A stretch of DNA of 64,000 nucleotides from Alphaproteobacteria bacterium (GCA_965232515.1 CBDDPY010000002.1:2112001-2176000); one strand, 5' to 3'; numbered from the stretch's first letter, positions 1 to 31,485 are shown. Notes: generated from the sequence alone by a model not told the origin. Numbers and translations are program-made.

Positions 1-669
1 AACCTGCTGGTGCGGAACCGGCAAAACGACGTCGCCGGCCTGTTGCGGATCTCGATCCCGCCCAACCTCGCCGAAGACCTGTTCGTCCCCGTCGTGAATG
101 CCTTCCAGGCGGACTTCCCGAAGGCCCGCGTCTCGGTCTTCGTCACCGAGCGTCACGTCGATCTCATCGCCGACGGCATCGATCTGGCATTCCGCGTCGG
201 CGAGCTCCGCGATAGCGGCCTGACGGCGCGACGGGTCGCCGAATTTCGACCGCGTCTCGTGGCCGCGCCCGCCTATCTGGCGACGCACGGCGCGCCGGCA
301 TCACCGCAACAGCTTTCGCAGCACCGCATCGTCGCCTTCGGTGATGGACGCGCCGCCACGACCTGGCGCCTGACCGGCAGCCGGTCATCGGACACCGATG
401 CCGCCGTCACCGTAAAGCTCGAGCCGGACCTGACGATGAACGACTACCGCGGCATTCTGCACGCCGTCCGGGCCGGCGCGGGCATCGCGGAGATCCCCGA
501 TGTGATCTGCGCCGGATCTATCGACGCCGGCGATCTGATGCCGGTCCTCGACGGCTGGACCTTCGCGCCCGTCGACCTCACGGCGCTGCATGCCGGCAAC
601 AGACACGCCTCCCGCCTGGTTCGCCTGTTCCTCGACGCCTGTATCACGGCCTTCAAACAACTGCCTTAG
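1..669 (+). CDS. LysR family transcriptional regulator (5'-truncated; substrate-binding domain)
   Basis: Frame is open from base 1; GLLRISIP...VDLIADGIDLAFRVG, typical of the CrgA-like LysR C-terminal domain. Confidence 0.9.
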   Translation, partial: NLLVRNRQNDVAGLLRISIPPNLAEDLFVPVVNAFQADFPKARVSVFVTERHVDLIADGIDLAFRVGELRDSGLTARRVAEFRPRLVAAPAYLATHGAPASPQQLSQHRIVAFGDGRAATTWRLTGSRSSDTDAAVTVKLEPDLTMNDYRGILHAVRAGAGIAEIPDVICAGSIDAGDLMPVLDGWTFAPVDLTALHAGNRHASRLVRLFLDACITAFKQLP

Positions 670-22625: not shown

Positions 22626-23927
22626 ATGCAAACGCTTCACCATGTGCTGCGCCTCAGACGGCTGATGTTCCGCCTCGCGCTGACCATCAGCCTGTTGACG
22701 GCCTTGGCGATTCCGACCGGGTTCTTCCTGGTCACCTATCTCGCCAAGCAATCGGCGCTCTATTTCAAGGCGCGGCTGAACGCCGACCGGTTGGCCCGGC
22801 ATGCCGTGGTCGCCGGTCCGCCCTGGCACCAGGACCCGGACCGGCTGATCGAGCTGATCAGCTTTACCAGCGACCCGCGGGACCGAGCGCTGCAGACCGT
22901 GCGCCGGGCCTCGGGCGCCGTCGCGCTGCTGACCGGGCCGCAGCTCGACGCGCCGACCATGACCGGCACCGCCGACATCGTCGCCGCCGGCGAGCGCATC
23001 GGCGAGCTCGAGATCATGGTCAGCCTGCGGCCGATCCTGATGCAGACCTCGGTCGTGGCGATTTTCGCCCTGCTCCTCGCCGCCGCCATTCACGCCGTCC
23101 TGCACCTGGTGCCGGTGCGTGTCCTGAACGACACGCTCGCCCGCCTGCAGCAGGCGCTGACCGAGGCCAAGACCGCGAGCCGGACCAAGTCCGAGTTCCT
23201 CGCCAACATCAGCCACGAGCTGCGCACGCCGCTGAACGCCATCATCGGCTTCTCCGAGATTCTGGAGGGCCAGATGCTGGGCCAGCTCGGCCACCCGAAG
23301 TATCGGGATTACGTGCGCGACATCAACGAGAGCGGCACCCACCTGCTCGCCATCATCAACGACATCCTCGATTTGTCGAAGGTCGAGGCCGGCAAGCTGA
23401 CGCTCAACCGCGAGCCCACCGAAGCCGAGCCGCTGATGGACGCCTGCCTGCGGCTGGTCGAGCCGCGCGCCCGCGACGCCGGCGTCGATCTCGAGATGAC
23501 GTCGCCGCCCGACGGGCCGCTGCCGCCGCTCGATGTCGACCCGATCCGCACCAAGCAGATCCTGCTCAACCTGCTGTCGAACGCCGTCAAGTTCACCCCC
23601 CGTGGCGGCACGGTCCAGCTGACCGTCGAGCATCGCGCCGCCGACATGCTGGCGCTCAGCATCCGCGACACCGGCATTGGCATGACGCCGGCCGAGGCCG
23701 AACAGGCGTTGCTGCCGTTTGCCCAGGTCGACGGCACCCACACCCGTCAGTACGAGGGCACCGGCCTCGGCCTGCCGCTGGCGAAGGCGCTAACCGAGAT
23801 GCATGGCGGCGCGCTCCGCATCGACAGCGTGCCCGATCGCGGCACCACCGTGACGGTCCTGCTGCCGGTCCACCAGGTCGACGCCGTGGCGCCATCAGCG
23901 CCGGCCGCCGCCGACCGCGCCGCCTGA
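22626..23927 (+). CDS. Membrane sensor histidine kinase (HisKA + HATPase_c)
   Basis: [20 protein letters not shown]-box, [22 protein letters not shown]. Confidence 0.93.
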
Positions 23928-24040: not shown

Positions 24041-25696
24041 ATGGGGATGCGAATGGGGCGCGACATGATCGATTTTCAGACCGAACCGGGGCGTTACAAG
24101 CACTGGAAGTTTCACATCGACGGCCGCGTGGCGACGCTCGCCATGGACGTGGCCGAGGATGGCGGGCTGCGCGACGACTACGAGATGAAGCTGAACTCCT
24201 ACGATCTCGGCGTCGATATCGAGCTCTACGACGCCGTGCAGCGGCTGCGTTTCGAGCATCCCGAGGTCGGCTGCGTCGTCCTCACCTCGGCCAAGGACCG
24301 CGTCTTCTGCGCCGGCGCCAACATCCGCATGCTGGCCGGCGCGACGCACGACCACAAAGTCAATTTCTGCAAGTTCACCAACGAAACCCGCGCCAGCATT
24401 GAGGATGCGACGGCCCATTCCGGCCAGCGCTATATCTGCGCCGTCAACGGCCCGTGCGCCGGCGGCGGCTACGAGCTGGCGCTCGCCTGCGACCACATCA
24501 TCCTCGCCGACGACGGCTCAACCTCGGTGGCGCTGCCGGAAGTGCCGCTGCTCGCCGTGCTGCCCGGCACCGGCGGCCTCACCCGCCTCACCGACAAGCG
24601 TCGCGTGCGCCGCGACCGCTGCGACTTCTTCTGCACGTTGGAGGAAGGCATCCGCGGCAAGCGCGCCGTCGACTGGCGCCTCGTCGACGAGCTGATCCCC
24701 CGCTCGAAATGGGGCGATGGCGTACGCGCCCGGGCCGAGGAGATCGCCGCGACAAGCCCTCGCCCCGCCGACGCCGAAGGCGTGCAACTGACGCCGCTCA
24801 CGCGCGAGATCGCCGGCGACCGCATTAGCTACGATACACTCAGCGTCGAGATCGATCGCGCGCTGCGCACCGCCGAGATCACCGTGCGCGCGCCGACGAC
24901 GGCGCCGGATGTCGCGCAAGGCGCGGCGTTCTGGCCGCTGAAGCTTGCGCGCGAGCTCGACGACGCCATCCTGCACTTGCGCCTGAACGAGACCGAAATC
25001 GGCACCTGGCTGTTGAAGACCGAGGGCGATCCAGCGTCGGTGCTCGCCTACGACGAAGTGCTCGCCGGCAACGCCGACGACTGGTTCGTCGCCGAAGTCA
25101 CCCACTATCTGAAGCGCGTGCTGAAGCGCCTCGACGTCAGCGCGCGCACGATCTTCGCGCTGATCGAACCCGGCAGCTGCTTCGTCGGTACGCTGTTCGA
25201 ACTGGCGCTTGCCGCCGACCGCAGCTACATGCTTGACGGCCAGTTCGAGGGCGACAACCGGCCGCCGGCCAAGGTCGTGCTCTCGGCCATGAACGACGGC
25301 CCCTACCCCATGCCGAACGGCCTGACGCGCATCGCCAGCCGTTTCCTCGACGACGATGGTGCGCAGGCCGCTGCCCGCGAAGCCATTGGCGCGGAACTGG
25401 AAGCGCCCGACGCCGAGGCGCTCGGCCTGATTACGTTTGCGCCCGACGACATCGACTGGGAAGACGAGGTCCGCATCGCCATCGAGGAGCGCGCGGCCTT
25501 CTCGCCCGACGCGCTCACCGGCATGGAGGCGAGCCTGCGTTTCGGCGGGCCCGAGACCATGGAAACCAAGATCTTCGCCCGGCTCTCGGCCTGGCAGAAC
25601 TGGATCTTCCAGCGACCCAACGCCGTCGGCGAGGCGGGCGCGCTCAGCGTCTACGGCACCGGCAAACGTCACGACTTCGACTTGAAAAGGGCTTGA
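24041..25696 (+). CDS. boxC: 2,3-epoxybenzoyl-CoA dihydrolase
   Basis: IDFQTEPGRYKHW, KLNSYDLGVDIEL, HKVNFCKFTNETR, WQNWIFQRPNA; start may be 24065. Confidence 0.96.
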   Translation: MGMRMGRDMIDFQTEPGRYKHWKFHIDGRVATLAMDVAEDGGLRDDYEMKLNSYDLGVDIELYDAVQRLRFEHPEVGCVVLTSAKDRVFCAGANIRMLAGATHDHKVNFCKFTNETRASIEDATAHSGQRYICAVNGPCAGGGYELALACDHIILADDGSTSVALPEVPLLAVLPGTGGLTRLTDKRRVRRDRCDFFCTLEEGIRGKRAVDWRLVDELIPRSKWGDGVRARAEEIAATSPRPADAEGVQLTPLTREIAGDRISYDTLSVEIDRALRTAEITVRAPTTAPDVAQGAAFWPLKLARELDDAILHLRLNETEIGTWLLKTEGDPASVLAYDEVLAGNADDWFVAEVTHYLKRVLKRLDVSARTIFALIEPGSCFVGTLFELALAADRSYMLDGQFEGDNRPPAKVVLSAMNDGPYPMPNGLTRIASRFLDDDGAQAAAREAIGAELEAPDAEALGLITFAPDDIDWEDEVRIAIEERAAFSPDALTGMEASLRFGGPETMETKIFARLSAWQNWIFQRPNAVGEAGALSVYGTGKRHDFDLKRA

Positions 25697-25701
25697 AGCC
25701 A

Positions 25702-27114
25702 ATGGCCATCGACTATCAGGACCGCATCCCCAACAACGTCGACCTCTCGGACAACCGCCGCCTGCAGCGCGCGCTGGAAGGCTGGCAGCCGGCCTATCTC
25801 GACTGGTGGGGCGACCGCGGGCCGACCGAGTTCCAGGGCTATGACGTCTACCTGCGCACGGCCGTCAGCGTCGAGCCCGGCGGCTGGGCCAACTACGGCT
25901 ACGTGAAGATGCCGGACTACCGTTGGGGCATCTTCCTCGCCGACCCCGAGGAAGACCGCCGCATCGGCTTCGGCGACCATATGGGCGAGCCGGCCTGGCA
26001 GGACGTGCCGGGCGAGTATCGTGGCGTACTGCGCCGGTTGATCGTGACGCAGGGCGACACCGAGCCGGCGTCCGTCGAGCAGCAGCGTCACCTCGGCGCC
26101 ACCTGCCCCTCGCTCTACGACCTGCGGAACCTGTTCCAGGTCAACGTCGAGGAAGGCCGCCACCTCTGGGCCATGGTCTACCTGCTGCAGGCCTATTTCG
26201 GCCGCGACGGCCGCGAGGAGGCCGACATGCTGCTTGAGCGCTCGTCCGGCGACGAGGACAAGCCGCGAATCTTGGGGGCCTTCAACGAGAAGACGCCGGA
26301 CTGGCTGTCCTTCTACATGTTCACCTTCTTCACCGACCGCGACGGCAAGTTCCAGCTCGCGAGCCTGGCCGAATCCGGCTTCGATCCGCTGTCGCGCACC
26401 TGCCGCTTCATGCTGACCGAAGAGGCCCACCACATGTTCGTCGGCGAGACCGGCGTCGGCCGCGTTGTCCAGCGCACCTGCGAGCTGATGCGCGAGCACG
26501 ACACCGAGGACGTGCGCCCGCACGGCGGCGTGCCGCTGTCGCTGCTGCAGAAGTATCTCAACTTCCACTTCTCGGTCTCGCTCGACCTGTTCGGCTCCGA
26601 GCTGTCGACCAACGCCGCCAATTACTACACCATGGGCATCAAGGGCCGGTTCCAGGAGGACAAGCGGAAAGACGACCACAAGCTGGTGCACGCCACTTAC
26701 CCGATCCTCGAATGCCGTGACGGCCGCTTCGAATCCGTCGACGAGCCAGCGCTGACAACCGTCAACGAGGCGCTGCGCGACGACTACATCGCCGACTGCC
26801 AGCGCGGCGTGAACCGCTGGAACAAGGTGATTGCCGATGCCGGTATCGACGTGACGCTGACCCTGCCGCACCGCGCCTTCCACCGCGCCATCGGCAGCTT
26901 CGCCGACATCACCGTCACCCCCGACGGCAAGCTGATCGCCCGCGAGGATTGGGAAGCCAACCGCGACAACTGGCTGCCCACCGCCGAAGACGAAGCCTTC
27001 GTCGCCAGCCTCATGCACCAAGTCGTCGAGCCCGGCAAATACGCCGCCTGGATCGCCCCACCCGCCCGCGGCATCAACAACCAACCGATCGACTTCGAGT
27101 ATGTGAGGATGTGA
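25702..27114 (+). CDS. boxB: Benzoyl-CoA 2,3-epoxidase diiron subunit
   Basis: IPNNVDL, TQGDTEPASVEQQ, VEEGRHLW, EEAHHM diiron motifs, DFEYVR. Confidence 0.96.
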   Translation: MAIDYQDRIPNNVDLSDNRRLQRALEGWQPAYLDWWGDRGPTEFQGYDVYLRTAVSVEPGGWANYGYVKMPDYRWGIFLADPEEDRRIGFGDHMGEPAWQDVPGEYRGVLRRLIVTQGDTEPASVEQQRHLGATCPSLYDLRNLFQVNVEEGRHLWAMVYLLQAYFGRDGREEADMLLERSSGDEDKPRILGAFNEKTPDWLSFYMFTFFTDRDGKFQLASLAESGFDPLSRTCRFMLTEEAHHMFVGETGVGRVVQRTCELMREHDTEDVRPHGGVPLSLLQKYLNFHFSVSLDLFGSELSTNAANYYTMGIKGRFQEDKRKDDHKLVHATYPILECRDGRFESVDEPALTTVNEALRDDYIADCQRGVNRWNKVIADAGIDVTLTLPHRAFHRAIGSFADITVTPDGKLIAREDWEANRDNWLPTAEDEAFVASLMHQVVEPGKYAAWIAPPARGINNQPIDFEYVRM

Positions 27115-27154
27115 CAGCACACGGCGAAGGCAGCAACTATCGACGGCCATTCAA

Positions 27155-29992
27155 TCAAACTGTTTCCACTTCGGAAAAACCTGCGGCGGCACGGATGTCC
27201 TGCGGCGTCAGCTCGCCAATGACCTTCTGGAGCTCCCTGCCGCTAAGGATGCGCTCCAGGTCCTTGTCAATATCCCCTCGACCGTCCGGCTCTATCGCGT
27301 TCGGGTGATTTTTCAGGTAGTCAGCCACCGCCGGCCAGCGCAACTGCACGATCAGCCAACGTGCCAGCGCGTTCCTGTGCGGCGTGAAGCCCTCCATCGT
27401 CCGGGCGGCGCGTGTAAAGTTGTAGGCCATGACGAACCGCTTGATAAAGCGTGGGTTCGCATCCAACAGCGTCGCGTACGGCGTCAGAATATGAGCGGTC
27501 GCTTGGCTTAGCTCCGCATCTTGAAACCGCGCCATCGCGTCCACGACCAGATCCGCGTGTTGTGACTCGTCCTCTCGCAAAATATCGAGCACCTCTTCCT
27601 CCGAAGTGCTTCTCGCGATCCGTGCCCTGCGTTCCGCCAGAACCGTACCATCATTCGACTGCGCGTCGGCGCCGGACGCGACGGCCGCCGTCAGCGCCGG
27701 AGTCGGTTCGGTCTCATCTCTCAGCAGCTTTCGTAAGAAACTGTCCTTCTGCGCATTGCTCATCGCCGGCACCGGCACTGTGACTTGAAACAGCTTTTCG
27801 AGGAACTGATAGCCCAACGGCCGGCCGGGTTCGCCGACAGCCTGCTTGTATGGACCATGCGCGACTTCGTAGCTGCGTCGGAGCCAGCGGCCGTCCGCCG
27901 CCACGATGAAGTAAATCGGCCGATGTGCCACGAATTGCTCGTTATTCGGCGACAGTTGCGGCCGATCGGCATCCAACGGAGCAGAAATCTGTCGACTATC
28001 TAGAGATGGACTGCGCATCAACGTTTGTACGGCGTCGAGCAGATCGACGACGTATTGCTGGTGGCAACGGTCCAGATCGTCGATCACGAACAACACCGGT
28101 CCCGGCGATTGCTTCCGCAACCAGTCGAAATGACCTGCCAGATCGCCCATCGGATTTGCGCGGGTGTCCCCGAACAGCTTCGCGCCACCCGGCGATCCCC
28201 ATGAGAGATACCTCAATATGGTCACCCCCAGAGCACCGACTGTTGCGATAACACTAATCGCCGCTGCCAGTAGCTTGAGAATACTCAAGGAAGAAGTCAG
28301 CCAGTTTTCGCTGCCGCCGGTCGTGATCGAGCCAACCCCAACCGATTTGTAGGCGCTCAGGCCCCCTCCACCAAATCCGCCGAACGGGTCGCCGAAGCCG
28401 ATCCAAGCGAGCACAGTGACGATCACGGCACCGAATAGCCAACCCAATCCGTAGATCGGCACGACAATCCGCGATGTTTCCCGTAACCGCAGCCAGATTC
28501 TGTCGTACCACCGCCGTTGCTGCCGCATGGCGTCTCTCATACTCTCCAACAATCCCCACCACGCCGGCCCGACATGAGCCTGGCGCCATGCGTCGAACTC
28601 GACAATCACCCACGGCGGAAGTTGAGACGTCGTACCGTTCCTAGGCTCGCCTCGTCCGTTGCCGGTTCCGGCGCGCGCCGACGGATCGTTGAACGCGTCG
28701 ACAATGAACTTCGCGATGGTTGATTTACCAGCACCCCAACGGCCCTCGAGCAGAAGCATGAAGGTCTCGGTGTCCGTATCGCAACGCAGCTCATCCAGCT
28801 TCCGCGCGACTGCCTTGGCCAGCTCTCGACGCTGCAAGAGATCGGTCTCGGCCCGCTGATCGTCGACAAGTCGCGTATCATGCCGGGCCCCAGCAATCCT
28901 ATTTCGCGGAAGGTGGGACTTTTCTGCCGATGGCGGCATTTTGGTTGACTGAAATCGCCCTTGCTCGGACAGATTGATAACGTCAGCGATCTTGCCGAGG
29001 CCTCGCCTCTGGAGATCTTCCCGCAAAGTCCCAGGCAACGAGTTGCCGCCAATCCAAAGCATTTCCAACGCAGTTAGCTGGCCGATGGCGTCCGGCAGGG
29101 CGTTCAGCTTGTTGTTGGTGAGGTCAAGAAGTTGCAGCGCCGCGAGCTCGCCGATGGCGTTCGGCAGTTCGTCCACCAGATTGTTGTGGAGGAAAAGCTG
29201 TTGCAGCGCCGTGAGTTGGCCGATGGCCTTCGGCAGTTTGTCCAGTTGGTTGTTGTTGAGGTAAAGCCGTTGCAGCGCTGTGAGTTGGCCGATGGCGTTC
29301 GGCAGTTCGCCCAGCTGGTTGTTGTCGAGATCGAGCATTTCCAACGCCGTTAGCTGGCCGATGGCGTTCGGCAGCGCGTTCAGCTGGTTGTTGGTGAGGT
29401 AAAGCCGTTGCAGCGCCGTGAGCTGGCCGATGGCGTTCGGCAGTTCGTCCAGCTGGTTGTTGTTGAGCCAAAGTATTTCCAGCGCGGTGAGCTGGTCGAT
29501 GACGTCCGGCAGTTCGTCCAACTGGTTGTTGTTGAGGTAAAGCCATCGCAGCGCCGTGAGTTGGCCGATGGCCTTCGGCAGTTTGTCCAGTTGGTTGTTG
29601 TCGAGGTCGAGCTGTTGCAGCGCCGTGAGCTGGCCGATGGCGTCCGGCAGAGCGTTAAGCTGATTGTTGTTGAGGTCAAGATGTTCGAGATGCGGGAAAG
29701 AGTTCAAAAACCGGGTGGGCAGCTTTCTTAACGCGTTGCACAGCTTCTTGTCCTCTTCGCTAAGCGCAAAATATGGCTTTTCTCTGACAGGTTCCGCCGG
29801 CCCGAGATATAGGACGCAGACGTTCGGCAGGGACGGAAGATCGGGGAGCAGACGATAAAAGTCGACCAGACCAAGGCCGCCGAGGTCGAGGGTGTCGGCG
29901 CCGGAGTCGGCGGCCTCGGCGATGCGCCGGAGGGCTTCGACCAAGCCCTCGTCCGAATCGGGCTCGTATATCGTCGCGGTCTCGTCTGCCAT
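27155..29992 (-). CDS. Leucine-rich repeat / KAP-family P-loop NTPase fusion (945 aa)
   Basis: N-cap EALRRIAEAADSGADTLDLGGLGL; ten 23-aa LRRs; Walker A EGRWGAGKST; FDAW; two TM helices; Walker B FVIDDLDRC; FLEKLFQVTVPVP; NPRFIKRF. Confidence 0.9.
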   Translation of the reverse strand: MADETATIYEPDSDEGLVEALRRIAEAADSGADTLDLGGLGLVDFYRLLPDLPSLPNVCVLYLGPAEPVREKPYFALSEEDKKLCNALRKLPTRFLNSFPHLEHLDLNNNQLNALPDAIGQLTALQQLDLDNNQLDKLPKAIGQLTALRWLYLNNNQLDELPDVIDQLTALEILWLNNNQLDELPNAIGQLTALQRLYLTNNQLNALPNAIGQLTALEMLDLDNNQLGELPNAIGQLTALQRLYLNNNQLDKLPKAIGQLTALQQLFLHNNLVDELPNAIGELAALQLLDLTNNKLNALPDAIGQLTALEMLWIGGNSLPGTLREDLQRRGLGKIADVINLSEQGRFQSTKMPPSAEKSHLPRNRIAGARHDTRLVDDQRAETDLLQRRELAKAVARKLDELRCDTDTETFMLLLEGRWGAGKSTIAKFIVDAFNDPSARAGTGNGRGEPRNGTTSQLPPWVIVEFDAWRQAHVGPAWWGLLESMRDAMRQQRRWYDRIWLRLRETSRIVVPIYGLGWLFGAVIVTVLAWIGFGDPFGGFGGGGLSAYKSVGVGSITTGGSENWLTSSLSILKLLAAAISVIATVGALGVTILRYLSWGSPGGAKLFGDTRANPMGDLAGHFDWLRKQSPGPVLFVIDDLDRCHQQYVVDLLDAVQTLMRSPSLDSRQISAPLDADRPQLSPNNEQFVAHRPIYFIVAADGRWLRRSYEVAHGPYKQAVGEPGRPLGYQFLEKLFQVTVPVPAMSNAQKDSFLRKLLRDETEPTPALTAAVASGADAQSNDGTVLAERRARIARSTSEEEVLDILREDESQHADLVVDAMARFQDAELSQATAHILTPYATLLDANPRFIKRFVMAYNFTRAARTMEGFTPHRNALARWLIVQLRWPAVADYLKNHPNAIEPDGRGDIDKDLERILSGRELQKVIGELTPQDIRAAAGFSEVETV
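29030..29689 (-). repeat. Intragenic 69-bp tandem repeats encoding LRRs
   Basis: Recurring gccgtgag(c/t)tggccgatggc...cggcag...cagctggttgttg at 69-bp spacing. Confidence 0.93.
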
Positions 29993-30174
29993 GTTTCAAA
30001 TTCAGTGGTGGCAGCTTGGGTTTGCAATTTAATGTTGCAAATAGAAGACAACAATTCCGTAATACTATGCAATGCGCACAAGATAAGCGCCCGTCTGCAA
30101 TGAGATGGTGGCCCGCGCCTCCTCGTCATGGAAGTGATGCGTTGATCGGGTGCTTGTAAGCGGAAGCGGAGAGG

Positions 30175-31281
30175 TTGACGACTACGTGCGCGGGCCGTAT
30201 GGCTCGGGTCATGGGTGTGTTGGATGATGGGTGGCACGGGGATCGGCCGGTGTCGGATGTGCCGTTTGTGCTGCGGCGGCGGGTGCATTGGGGGGATGGG
30301 GATGCGGCGCGGATTGTTTATACGGGCCGGTTTGTCGACTTTGCCTTGGAAGCCGCCGATTGCTGGTGGGAGGCGGTGCTGGGGGTGAACTGGTATCAGC
30401 TCAATGTCGAGCATGATCGCGGCACGCCGTTGGTGGCGATGCGGTTCGATTTTGAGCGGCCGTTGCGGCCGGGGGATCGGGTCGATCTGACGGTTGCTGT
30501 CGAGAAGCTGGGGCGGTCGTCGCTGGCGCTTCGGGTCGATGGCGCGAAGGTGGGGGGTGAGCACTGTTTTTCGGCCGTGCTGACCGAGGCGCTGACGGTG
30601 CCGTCGCGGATGAAGGCGACGGCGTTTCCGGACGACTTTCGGCGGCGGATCGAGGGCTATGCGCGGGAATGCGCGCTGCGCGAGACCGGCGTCAGGAGCA
30701 AACGCGAGGTGCTGGATTTCTGGTTCGCGCCACCCGGCTCGCCGGCGCGCGGCACGGTGCGCGATGTCTGGTTCAAGCCGGAGGATCCGGACACGGCCGC
30801 GGCCTTCGATCAAGCGATCCGCGACACGTTCACGGCGACCTACGAGGCGGCGGCGCGGGGCGACCTCGACCATTGGATGGCGACGGCCGACGGCTCGCTG
30901 GCGCTGATCATCGTGCTGGACCAGTTCCCGCGCAACATGTTCCGGAATTCACCCAAAGCCTTCGCGACGGACGCCAAGGCACTGAACGTGCTGGAACATG
31001 TTCTGGAACAGGGCTTCGACCGGGGCACCGGCTATGTCGACGGCATGTTCTTCTACCTGCCGCTGGAGCACAGCGAGGATCTGGAGCATCAGCGGCGCAG
31101 TGTCGCCATGTTCGACCGGTTCAAGGATGATCCGGCCGCCGAGATGGGGTTGTGGGCGGTGCAGCGGCATTTCGAGATCATCGAGCGGTTCGGGCGCTTT
31201 CCGCACCGGAATGATTGCCTCGGCCGGGAGAGCACGGCCGAGGAACTGGCGTTCCTGACGGAGCCGCATTCGTCGTTTTAG
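30175..31281 (+). CDS. Acyl-CoA thioesterase (hot-dog, 4HBT-like) fused to DUF924
   Basis: RRVHWGDGDAARIVY...LGRSSL, then VLDFWF, IIVLDQFPRNMFR, FYLPLEHSE, RFGRFPHRN in one frame; true start probably 30211-30250. Confidence 0.85.
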   Translation: MTTTCAGRMARVMGVLDDGWHGDRPVSDVPFVLRRRVHWGDGDAARIVYTGRFVDFALEAADCWWEAVLGVNWYQLNVEHDRGTPLVAMRFDFERPLRPGDRVDLTVAVEKLGRSSLALRVDGAKVGGEHCFSAVLTEALTVPSRMKATAFPDDFRRRIEGYARECALRETGVRSKREVLDFWFAPPGSPARGTVRDVWFKPEDPDTAAAFDQAIRDTFTATYEAAARGDLDHWMATADGSLALIIVLDQFPRNMFRNSPKAFATDAKALNVLEHVLEQGFDRGTGYVDGMFFYLPLEHSEDLEHQRRSVAMFDRFKDDPAAEMGLWAVQRHFEIIERFGRFPHRNDCLGRESTAEELAFLTEPHSSF

Positions 31282-31297
31282 GCTCACCTTCTCAGTT

Positions 31298-31382
31298 GGC
31301 ATCCTGGCGGAGGCCAGGATCCATGTTCGTTGTTTCTCAACATGTTGCGATGCACATGGATGCTGGCCTGCGCCAGCATGAC
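31298..31382. repeat. REP doublet (inverted pair of alphaproteobacterial-type REP palindromes)
   Basis: GGCATCCTGGCGGAGGCCAGGATCCATG ... CATGGATGCTGGCCTGCGCCAGCATGAC. Confidence 0.7.
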
Positions 31383-31485
31383 GGTTGGGGGCGTAGCGTC
31401 AGAGTGGGAGGACGCATTGCGACACGTTCAGACACCCCTACATCAGGGCTCGACAAACGCGTCATGTTCCCCACGTAATCCGTTG

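Follow-up and report, generated by a model that had tools for sequence, protein, structure and literature searches.

Transmembrane (TM) helices inserted within the P-loop domain were reportedly given as a feature of KAP-family NTPases by Aravind et al. in 2004. This feature is restated in the Tmn preprint (bioRxiv 10.1101/2022.08.21.504612). Protection of Enterococcus faecalis from phage has been reported for EF_KAP and three metagenomic KAP P-loop fusion proteins, and EF_KAP is inactivated by a Walker B mutation or by deletion of its fused region (PMC13552941, PLoS Biol 2026). Tmn is described as a decamer with a TM hairpin inside the P-loop domain, a solenoid arm that senses phage RIIB, and Mg2+ export, and PifA is associated with membrane depolarisation and nucleotide leakage; the same source mentions repeat-containing KAP NTPases in general terms (bioRxiv 10.64898/2026.03.01.708804). 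A KAP ATPase can also substitute for a STAND NTPase in effector-associated-domain conflict systems (PMC8195603), and KAP NTPases are among the targets of diversity-generating retroelements (PMC10907252). Here, a 64,000-nt window of an Alphaproteobacteria bacterium genome (GCA_965232515.1, CBDDPY010000002.1:2112001-2176000; positions are counted from its first nucleotide) was found to hold a gene, LRR-KAP (27155..29992, minus strand), whose product joins leucine-rich repeats (LRRs) to a complete KAP-family NTPase. Judged from sequence, LRR-KAP is a rare, recurrent fusion of these known families.

LRR-KAP is a single intact open reading frame (ORF) encoding 945 aa, with an ATG start that agrees with the starts of homologs and a stop codon at 27155-27157. 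From the N to the C terminus, the protein consists of an N-cap, an LRR array, a linker and a P-loop NTPase of the KAP family with two TM helices (Table 1). The Walker A motif, LEGRWGAGKST, includes G417-S424 (nt 28721-28744); FDAW follows at aa 466-469 (FDAWR, 466-470), Walker B, IDDLDRC, at I637-C643 (nt 28064-28084), and AADGRW, FLEKLFQ and NPRFIKR at 698-703, 730-736 and 846-852 of the translation. The initial annotation of this DNA had described one 945-aa ORF and quoted a series of KAP motifs, and each of these motifs was recovered in the order given, both in the translation and in an alignment of 93 sequences. In that alignment, W419, G420, G422, K423, W469, R470, D641, R642, C643, D700, W703, F730, K733, F735 and Q736 are invariant, D638 and D639 are conserved in at least 90% of sequences, and Walker A and Walker B are intact. 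In agreement with the motifs, the Pfam family KAP_NTPase (PF07693) was matched in two stretches (E 2.5e-21, 76.6 bits vs a cut-off of 20). A search of the genome with this profile returned three segments above the cut-off, all from this one gene, which is hence the sole PF07693 gene of the genome, and the Atlas neighbours of the protein are KAP clusters throughout. Pfam LRR families were matched at approximately aa 85-320 (LRR_14, E 2.1e-48; LRR_8, 1.6e-33; LRR_4, 4e-34). The architecture is regarded as established.

Between Walker A and Walker B lie two hydrophobic segments (Kyte-Doolittle mean >1.6), and helices are modeled at the same place, as expected from the two inserted TM helices and the membrane anchoring claimed by the initial annotation. 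Insertion of TM helices within the P-loop domain is shared by nearly all of the 101 homologs retrieved with the KAP half. An Arg-rich flank precedes TM helix 1, and the loop between the helices is Gly-rich with one Lys. By the positive-inside rule, both ends of the hairpin are predicted to be cytoplasmic, and the LRRs and both halves of the NTPase would therefore be cytoplasmic as well, with the short Gly-rich loop outside.

A model was built with AlphaFold2 (AF2) and the 93-sequence alignment. The KAP half is confident, with blocks mostly above a predicted local distance difference test (pLDDT) score of 90. The best solved fold for the core (model residues 385-749) is RdrA of RADAR (8fnu_A, Z 12.3, root mean square deviation (rmsd) of 3.9 Å over 208 residues), and a second RdrA structure, 8fnt_B, follows with Z 11.8. 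Next are Cdc6/ORC (Z approximately 9.3-10.6), BrxC (9.5-9.6), ZAR1 (8.7), CED-4 (8.3) and Avs3 (7.9), with NRC2 also within the 7.9-8.7 range; these lower matches fall within the score range common for the structural aligner, which is independent of Foldseek. Foldseek gave no match in the PDB at E <= 0.001, its best again being RdrA (E 0.0097), and no solved structure was related by sequence, the PDB returning chance-level cytochrome b5 matches alone (E >= 0.009). On these models, the NTPase core has an AAA+/STAND-like switch fold, and its nearest match is a ring-forming defence ATPase.

The LRR array starts with nine regular units of 23 residues each (aa 100-306), and a tenth, degenerate unit follows (aa 307-329). 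Of the ten 23-residue repeats originally counted, nine thus hold as regular units, while the last has lost its regularity. Tandem Repeats Finder (TRF) reports a 69-nt period at 29056-29680, with 9.1 copies and 79% matches. Variation within the array is concentrated at repeat positions 4, 5, 7 and 9, which correspond to x in LxxLxLxxN and, in LRR structures, make up the concave strand face; further variation falls on positions 14, 15 and 18, and position 7 is occupied by D, Y, W or F. A single-sequence AF2 model of the LRR half alone contains ten strands with a spacing of approximately 23 residues, at low confidence (pLDDT 51.6). The full-length model is wrong for the LRRs, which it renders as helical (pLDDT approximately 30-40), since the alignment lacks homology in that part.

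Judged by database matches, the LRR half is most closely related to bacterial Roco proteins. A metagenome scan with the whole protein returned one locus only, an LRR-Roc protein that matches the LRR half. Among plasmid records, 230 match at E <= 1e-8, none of them covering at least 80% of the query at one place; the best 15 of the 230 all lie in the LRR region, with one (H2) reaching aa 444. The plasmid match covering most of the query is a 971-aa LRR-Roc-COR-A-COR-B-EAD1 protein from a Calothrix sp. PCC 7716 plasmid (AP025021.1; L123, 5905-8820). These Roc-containing matches bear out the Roco-type assignment that had been given to the LRRs. The Calothrix plasmid is mobilizable, and its LRR-Roc-COR-EAD1 gene has as neighbours a transposase and hypothetical proteins that match nothing in Pfam. 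In NCBIfam, the LRR part is best matched by the LRR regions of the XopAC, XopAE and XopL type III effector models and of a Leptospira LRR protein; they span the generic LRR region only and score 105-133 bits vs cut-offs of 450-1000.

The KAP half has a sporadic distribution. It was found in 0/32 other genomes of the order, and a sample of 400 others of the class yielded two matches (at 31-37% identity); the whole protein gave weak LRR-only matches, and nothing else, in 30 relatives. Vertical conservation, which the initial annotation had named as the finding that would speak against a defence gene, is at odds with these counts. Phage records gave no tblastn match of the KAP half. In protein databases, a word-indexed search with the KAP half returned 101 proteins, and an exhaustive profile-free search of 1.84 billion representatives returned 2,233 at E <= 0.001 and 765 at E <= 1e-30. 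In reference genomes, the KAP clade is mainly actinobacterial (mainly free-living Actinomycetota), with no member above 35% identity to the query. Two further proteins, both from other sources, combine LRRs with KAP: P0002 (982 aa, 11 LRRs, 59% identity in the KAP half) and P0003 (747 aa, 3 LRRs, 48-55%). The N-cap, 66-71% identical to those of P0002 and P0003, the C-cap and the KAP half are common to all three proteins, and the number of LRRs varies from 10 in the query to 11 and 3. A simple LRR pattern applied to 221 proteins found at least three units in the query (P0001) and P0002 only, the LRRs of P0003 being recognized by Pfam. The fourth-closest relative, P0004, is 45-50% identical in its KAP half and has an unrelated 136-aa N-terminus; modules are therefore swapped even among close relatives.

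All 101 proteins, the query included, share a variable N-terminal part, a KAP core, a hairpin approximately 70-100 residues after Walker A and a helical C-terminal part. The additional part is N-terminal in every one of them (N-extensions of 4-560 aa, C-extensions of at most 154 aa). By a hand count of the precomputed Pfam column, with five members rechecked, the N-terminal modules are WD40 (19/101), TIR_2 (14/101, seven of these also with WD40), Clp_N (6/101), Peptidase_C14 (5/101), LRR (3/101; the query, P0002 and P0003), NB-ARC/NACHT-type (3/101), NYN, Trypsin-like, TPR and Pua-like (2/101 each), and CHAT, SIR2_2 and Roc-COR (1/101 each), the last in P0049, where Roc-COR is joined to KAP. 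The remaining proteins have an N-terminal part without a recognised domain. Of the Pfam accession-to-name assignments behind this count, those of CHAT, Pua-like, Roc, COR and Trypsin_2 were confirmed. By this survey, the KAP clade carries swappable N-terminal modules, and the modularity of the family is considered established. No description of an LRR-KAP fusion was found by full-text searches of the literature, with the 2004 family-defining paper and the supplements of PMC13552941 outside the scope of that search.

The gene lies between boxB and a thioesterase-DUF924 gene, both on the plus strand and both part of a cluster for benzoate degradation. It is convergent with boxB, with a 40-bp gap between the two stops, and divergent from the thioesterase-DUF924 gene, so that the antisense placement originally noted applies on both sides. 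boxB was found in 18/18 other genomes of the same family. In four of nine relatives' loci (G004, G010, G008 and G013), boxC-boxB is followed directly by thioesterase-DUF924; in three more (G003, G009 and G019) the neighbourhood is alike but has a gap of approximately 0.8-2.4 kb, and the thioesterase-DUF924 gene was not seen in the 19-kb stretch of the other two (G014 and G015). The LRR-KAP protein was matched in 0/9 of these loci. Homology to a genome of the same genus, G001 (81% complete), stops at 27114 and resumes at 30210. In G001, the boxB-thioesterase gap (L027, C268 130-1165) is occupied by approximately 1 kb of different DNA with repeats resembling repetitive extragenic palindromic (REP) elements and an 82-aa ORF (180-428, minus strand) without a Pfam match. 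The homology break in G001 and the direct adjacency in four relatives confirm the proposed insertion into the box cluster. By comparison of the two species of one genus, the boxB-thioesterase gap is an insertion hot spot with differing cargo.

The composition of the insert also differs from its surroundings. Its GC content is 57-61% vs approximately 66-70% in the flanks, and that of the LRR-KAP gene is 59.7% vs 65.5% for the genome. GC content at third codon positions (GC3) is 0.72 for the whole gene and 0.81-0.92 for eleven neighbouring genes. The KAP half had been singled out for its low GC3, and its value is indeed low (0.698); however, the feature is not special to it, since the LRR half (0.756) is also below the neighbours. 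The linker with the C-cap has a GC3 of 0.59, pLDDT below 50 at aa 350-366, and 44-46% identity to P0002. No target-site duplication or terminal inverted repeats flank the insert, and no integrase, transposase or partner gene was found within it. The LRR-KAP gene is a solitary, compositionally foreign, horizontally acquired insertion, and its acquisition is considered established. The region upstream of the gene contains a perfect palindrome, TTGCAA-N7-TTGCAA, at approximately 30022-30040, which may be an operator for a regulator encoded outside the insert; a scan of this region for the sigma-70 consensus gave no site.

The integrity of the fusion was assessed with public reads. Run X1, which may be the source sample of the genome, yielded a 2842-nt contig that matches 26391-29232 with 0 differences and runs from boxB through the KAP half and the linker into the LRRs, together with further pieces at 29227-29577 and 29572-31386. 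Reads across approximately 28900-29050 had been named as the check for an assembly chimera, and this contig spans the fusion junction without a difference. A second sample of the same study, run X3, yielded identical pieces, one of which (26934-27243) crosses the boxB/KAP junction. The X1 pieces join inside the repeat array with overlaps of 6 nt only, which confirms the fusion and leaves the exact number of LRRs without independent confirmation. An assembly chimera is ruled out by the junction-spanning contig and by the LRR-KAP fusions of P0002 and P0003. The runs listed as matching the window include no RNA run. Two RNA runs gave 0 reads on the window, a result that has no bearing on expression; the species label they share with the DNA runs may belong to a eukaryotic source rather than to the bacterium. 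The runs that share this label with the matching DNA runs are mostly poly-A RNA-seq libraries.

Table 1 Features of LRR-KAP and of the inserted segment.
Feature	Position	Strand	Basis
LRR-KAP coding sequence	27155..29992	-	ORF listing, translation and Pfam; single-copy in genome
N-cap, aa 1-99 (helix, first irregular LRR-like unit, insert)	29696..29992	-	conserved in all three LRR-KAP proteins
LRR array, aa 100-329	29006..29695	-	repeat analysis, TRF
C-cap and linker, aa 330-392, predicted partly disordered	28817..29005	-	pLDDT, GC3, identity
KAP NTPase first part, aa 393-506, with Walker A and FDAWR	28475..28816	-	Pfam, invariant residues, pLDDT mostly >90
TM helix 1, aa 507-537	28382..28474	-	hydropathy; model helices H495-514, H517-532
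Gly-rich loop, aa 538-563, predicted outside the cytoplasm	28304..28381	-	length varies among homologs; low pLDDT
TM helix 2, aa 564-597	28202..28303	-	hydropathy; model helix 564-598
KAP NTPase core second part, aa 598-760, with Walker B, AADGRW and FLEKLFQ	27713..28201	-	invariant residues, structural alignment
C-terminal helical KAP-family domain, aa 761-945, with H834 and NPR848xIKR	27158..27712	-	alignment, model
Inserted segment, ~3.1 kb, one gene and upstream region	27115..30210	.	between boxB stop 27114 and thioesterase-DUF924 start 30211
AT-rich divergent upstream region, 218 bp, presumed promoter/operator	29993..30210	.	sequence

Several observations concern the surroundings of the insert. 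boxC and boxB are adjacent (24041-27114) with overlapping stop and start, boxC being preceded by a histidine kinase gene (22626-23927); a boxA-like reductase gene was seen after boxB neither in this cluster nor in the loci of relatives that were inspected. The thioesterase-DUF924 gene, directly downstream of boxCB, encodes a 356-aa fusion of a thioesterase (4HBT_2) and DUF924 (30211-31281). Recurrence of the boxCB-thioesterase-DUF924 adjacency in the four relatives suggests that the role of this protein is linked to benzoyl-CoA oxidation; in G003, G009 and G019, one half only of the protein was matched. Between the thioesterase-DUF924 and DUF454 genes lies an element of approximately 90-110 nt (31285-31395), which resembles a REP element or a miniature inverted-repeat transposable element (MITE) and occurs in 19 copies of at least 70 nt (28 high-scoring segment pairs) in its own chromosome, with at least 40 matches at 86-91% identity in G001. 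Assembly contigs C3 (5,516 nt, 45.8% GC) and C4 (10,862 nt, 42.3% GC) differ in composition from the chromosome (65.5%) and may be foreign replicons or contamination.

A function of LRR-KAP in biological conflict or defence is slightly favoured. This reading is based on the domain logic and on the published antiphage KAP proteins, not on genomic context. The sporadic and foreign single-gene insertion, the swapping of the N-terminal slot, and the variable number and exposed positions of the LRRs argue for a conflict role. Between the query and P0002, identity is 70% in the KAP core, 82% (118/144) at the LRR scaffold positions and 25% (16/63) at the variable LRR positions, a pattern that is consistent with diversification of the LRR binding face; this is a descriptive comparison rather than a test.

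Held against these points are several others that weigh on the opposite side. The classes of variable LRR positions were defined on the query's own repeats. No PADLOC system model fits the protein, the matches being short and confined to the P-loop of QatA (positions 2-59/646), PifA (14-66/720, E 2.8e-4), PDC-S20 (approximately 28 residues) and LeoBC. The neighbours of LRR-KAP are catabolic and envelope genes, with no defence island. Elsewhere, a clear defence neighbour was present at one of 22 homolog loci (SoFic, at L038, a full-length PADLOC match), in addition to three generic partial matches, and the 122 ORFs flanking these loci are mostly metabolic by Pfam and include no recurrent partner; the few of mobile or defence type are AbiEi_2, Hypoth_Ymh with an insertion sequence (IS) fragment, Fic, TerD and a Rep protein. 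Three ORFs per side were taken where available, with a crude GC-based caller that missed the KAP gene in 3/22 loci, and the homologs sampled are few, at most 35% identical and mostly actinobacterial, which makes the comparison a distant one. The N-terminal slot of relatives also holds effector-type domains, and the equation of an N-terminal module with a sensor is therefore not general. Finally, EF_KAP reportedly does not work through abortive infection (PMC13552941), and a lethal membrane output is therefore not the rule for KAP proteins; the abortive infection invoked earlier was an assumption of that interpretation. The immune-system interpretation as first drawn is partly supported: its architecture, its membrane topology and the placement of the gene as an insertion in the box cluster are confirmed, and its defence function is putative.

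A specific sensor-to-membrane immune mechanism is put forward tentatively. LRR-KAP would be a stand-alone, inner-membrane-anchored KAP signalling NTPase with a Roco-type LRR solenoid in its variable N-terminal slot. On its concave side, which is rich in aromatic residues, the solenoid would bind a protein that a phage or another invading mobile element brings into the cytoplasm. Once this has bound, the NTPase would be free to self-assemble in a nucleotide-dependent manner, as RdrA, Tmn and STAND proteins do, and the assembled TM hairpins would perturb membrane integrity or ion balance, so that replication of the invader stops. The membrane hairpin is proposed as the output because the protein has no enzymatic effector domain. 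A stronger form of this proposal, in which LRR-KAP is a one-protein, membrane-inserted analogue of the resistosome of nucleotide-binding leucine-rich repeat (NLR) receptors, with the Roc-COR of Roco proteins swapped for KAP and a ring of hairpins as ion-conducting or membrane-perturbing effector, is somewhat doubtful.

In a non-immune alternative, LRR-KAP is a membrane signalling or scaffolding NTPase that regulates the assembly of a membrane-associated complex, with its LRRs bound to an endogenous partner. Such regulation was the first proposal made for the KAP family (cited in PMC13552941 and bioRxiv 10.64898/2026.03.01.708804), and the mostly ordinary neighbours of homologs, together with the lack of a defence island at the LRR-KAP locus, are in keeping with it. 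The very sporadic distribution in order and class, the strain-specific insertion with its foreign composition, the varying LRR copy number and the exchange of N-terminal modules for death- or effector-type domains are, however, marks of conflict genes and not of a conserved cellular function, and this alternative is considered unlikely.

A reversal of roles is rated as rather improbable. Here, the KAP-TM part would be the sensor, responding for example to nucleotide status or, by way of its hairpin and outer loop, to a disturbed envelope or membrane. The LRR solenoid would be the output: as an adaptor, it would capture or sequester a host or invader protein, or would recruit an effector from another locus. 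The TIR_2, Peptidase_C14, CHAT, trypsin-like, SIR2_2 and NYN domains found in the N-terminal slot of relatives suggest that the constant KAP-TM-C-terminal part senses or switches, yet seven of the 19 WD40 members are TIR-WD40-KAP proteins, in which the repeats stand beside the NTPase and the enzyme far N-terminal, in the usual effector-sensor-switch order. Similarly, the hairpin (30% identity between the query and P0002) and its Gly-rich loop (23%) are the most divergent parts of these close relatives, as for a surface under pressure, but TM segments commonly diverge fast without sensing, and the variable LRR positions have the pattern of a ligand-binding face. Synergy of Tmn with the sensory-switch ATPases of other systems is reported (bioRxiv 10.1101/2022.08.21.504612), which would also suit a sensing KAP-TM part.

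That LRR-KAP is a neutral or decaying passenger, recently transferred and silent or functionless in its host, is very unlikely: the foreign composition, the want of a recognisable sigma-70 consensus promoter and the convergence on boxB, with 40 bp between the stops, would fit, but the 945-codon frame is intact, all invariant residues of the family are kept, and the sequence is identical in contigs from the second sample of the study. Least probable is a host-interaction protein, with LRRs that imitate eukaryotic ones and attach to a factor of the eukaryotic host, in the manner of LRR effectors from pathogens of plants and animals. The Xop and Leptospira matches could be cited for it, as could a sample that may be eukaryote-associated, given the poly-A libraries under the same species label. 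Those matches, however, are all far below cut-off and generic, a layout with a TM hairpin inside a cytoplasmic NTPase is not that of a secretion substrate, and the nearest relatives are bacterial Roco proteins for the LRRs and mainly free-living Actinomycetota for KAP.

Antiphage protection by KAP proteins is a recent discovery, and in most tested members the fused regions are of unknown fold. LRR-KAP carries a textbook ligand-binding domain whose exposed positions vary from one close relative to another, and it lacks an enzymatic effector domain; it therefore offers a compact single-gene case for separating sensor, switch and output. The exchange of repeat sensors (LRR, WD40 and TPR) and switch NTPases (STAND, Roc and KAP) as modules in bacteria bears on the evolution of NLR-like receptors. 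If the resistosome analogy were true, bacterial LRR recognition would have been joined to a switch NTPase three times independently (STAND, Roc and KAP), and the KAP hairpin would be an executioner element. If LRR-KAP has no role in conflict, it would instead warn against inferring immunity from domain logic only.

Among known systems, the antiphage KAP fusions of PMC13552941 share with LRR-KAP a single gene, a KAP NTPase, TM helices and a fused variable region, and both the NTPase motif and the fused region are needed there. Their variable region is C-terminal and without a known domain, whereas that of LRR-KAP is an N-terminal LRR solenoid. PifA of the F plasmid, which excludes T7, is likewise a KAP-family P-loop NTPase encoded by a single gene on a mobile element, with a membrane-directed outcome; in contrast to LRR-KAP, it has no LRRs and is said to be without TM helices (bioRxiv 10.64898/2026.03.01.708804). 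LRR-KAP is not PifA itself, the PADLOC match being limited to the short segment given above. QatA is not a closer identity: the NCBIfam QatA model scored 47.3 bits vs 600 over positions 3-60/628, and no QueC or TatD-like neighbour is present.

Tmn resembles LRR-KAP in its single gene, its two TM helices in the P-loop domain and a cytoplasmic solenoid-like arm proposed as sensor, and it offers a plausible model for a hairpin NTPase that acts on the membrane. The arm of Tmn, however, is ARM-like, C-terminal to the core and without recognisable repeats, and the decamer and Mg2+ export are known from Tmn and not from KAP proteins. No match at E <= 0.01 was obtained to YobI-ATPase in Pfam or to tmn in PADLOC, where the presence of a tmn model is unconfirmed, and LRR-KAP is not assigned to Tmn/YobI. 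With RdrA of RADAR, a ring-forming defence ATPase, the likeness lies in structure, RdrA coming first among the matches to the NTPase core; RdrA differs in having neither a TM hairpin nor LRRs. The fold (Z 12.3) is the sole link to RADAR, as PADLOC gave no RdrA match and no RdrB deaminase neighbour is present.

Bacterial NLR, bNACHT and Avs proteins combine a repeat sensor with a P-loop switch NTPase, as does LRR-KAP, and their NTPase cores are similar in fold (Z 7.9-8.7); bacterial NACHT proteins that contain LRRs exist (PMC12169576). LRR-KAP differs in its KAP rather than STAND NTPase, N-terminal repeats and TM hairpin, and in having no separate effector domain. It does not belong to the NLR/STAND proteins by profile, with P-loop-local matches to NPHP3_N (24.7 vs 24.8) and nSTAND_NTPase5 (21.6 vs 34), and no match at E <= 0.01 to the Avs and bNACHT models in PADLOC. 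The NLR-like logic proposed in the initial annotation is thus reasonable, the N-terminal slot of the clade holding repeat sensors or death- and effector-type domains, but the placement of the LRRs before the NTPase is that of Roco proteins and not of NLRs. Roco proteins (LRR-Roc-COR, including the Calothrix LRR-Roc-COR-EAD1 protein) have the same type of LRR, N-terminal to the NTPase, and differ in that LRR-KAP has a KAP NTPase and TM hairpin in place of Roc-COR; Pfam finds neither Roc nor COR in LRR-KAP, which is therefore not itself a Roco protein. From these analogies, LRR-KAP plausibly works like the tested KAP fusions and Tmn, with a logic that resembles that of NLRs and a layout that resembles that of Roco proteins.

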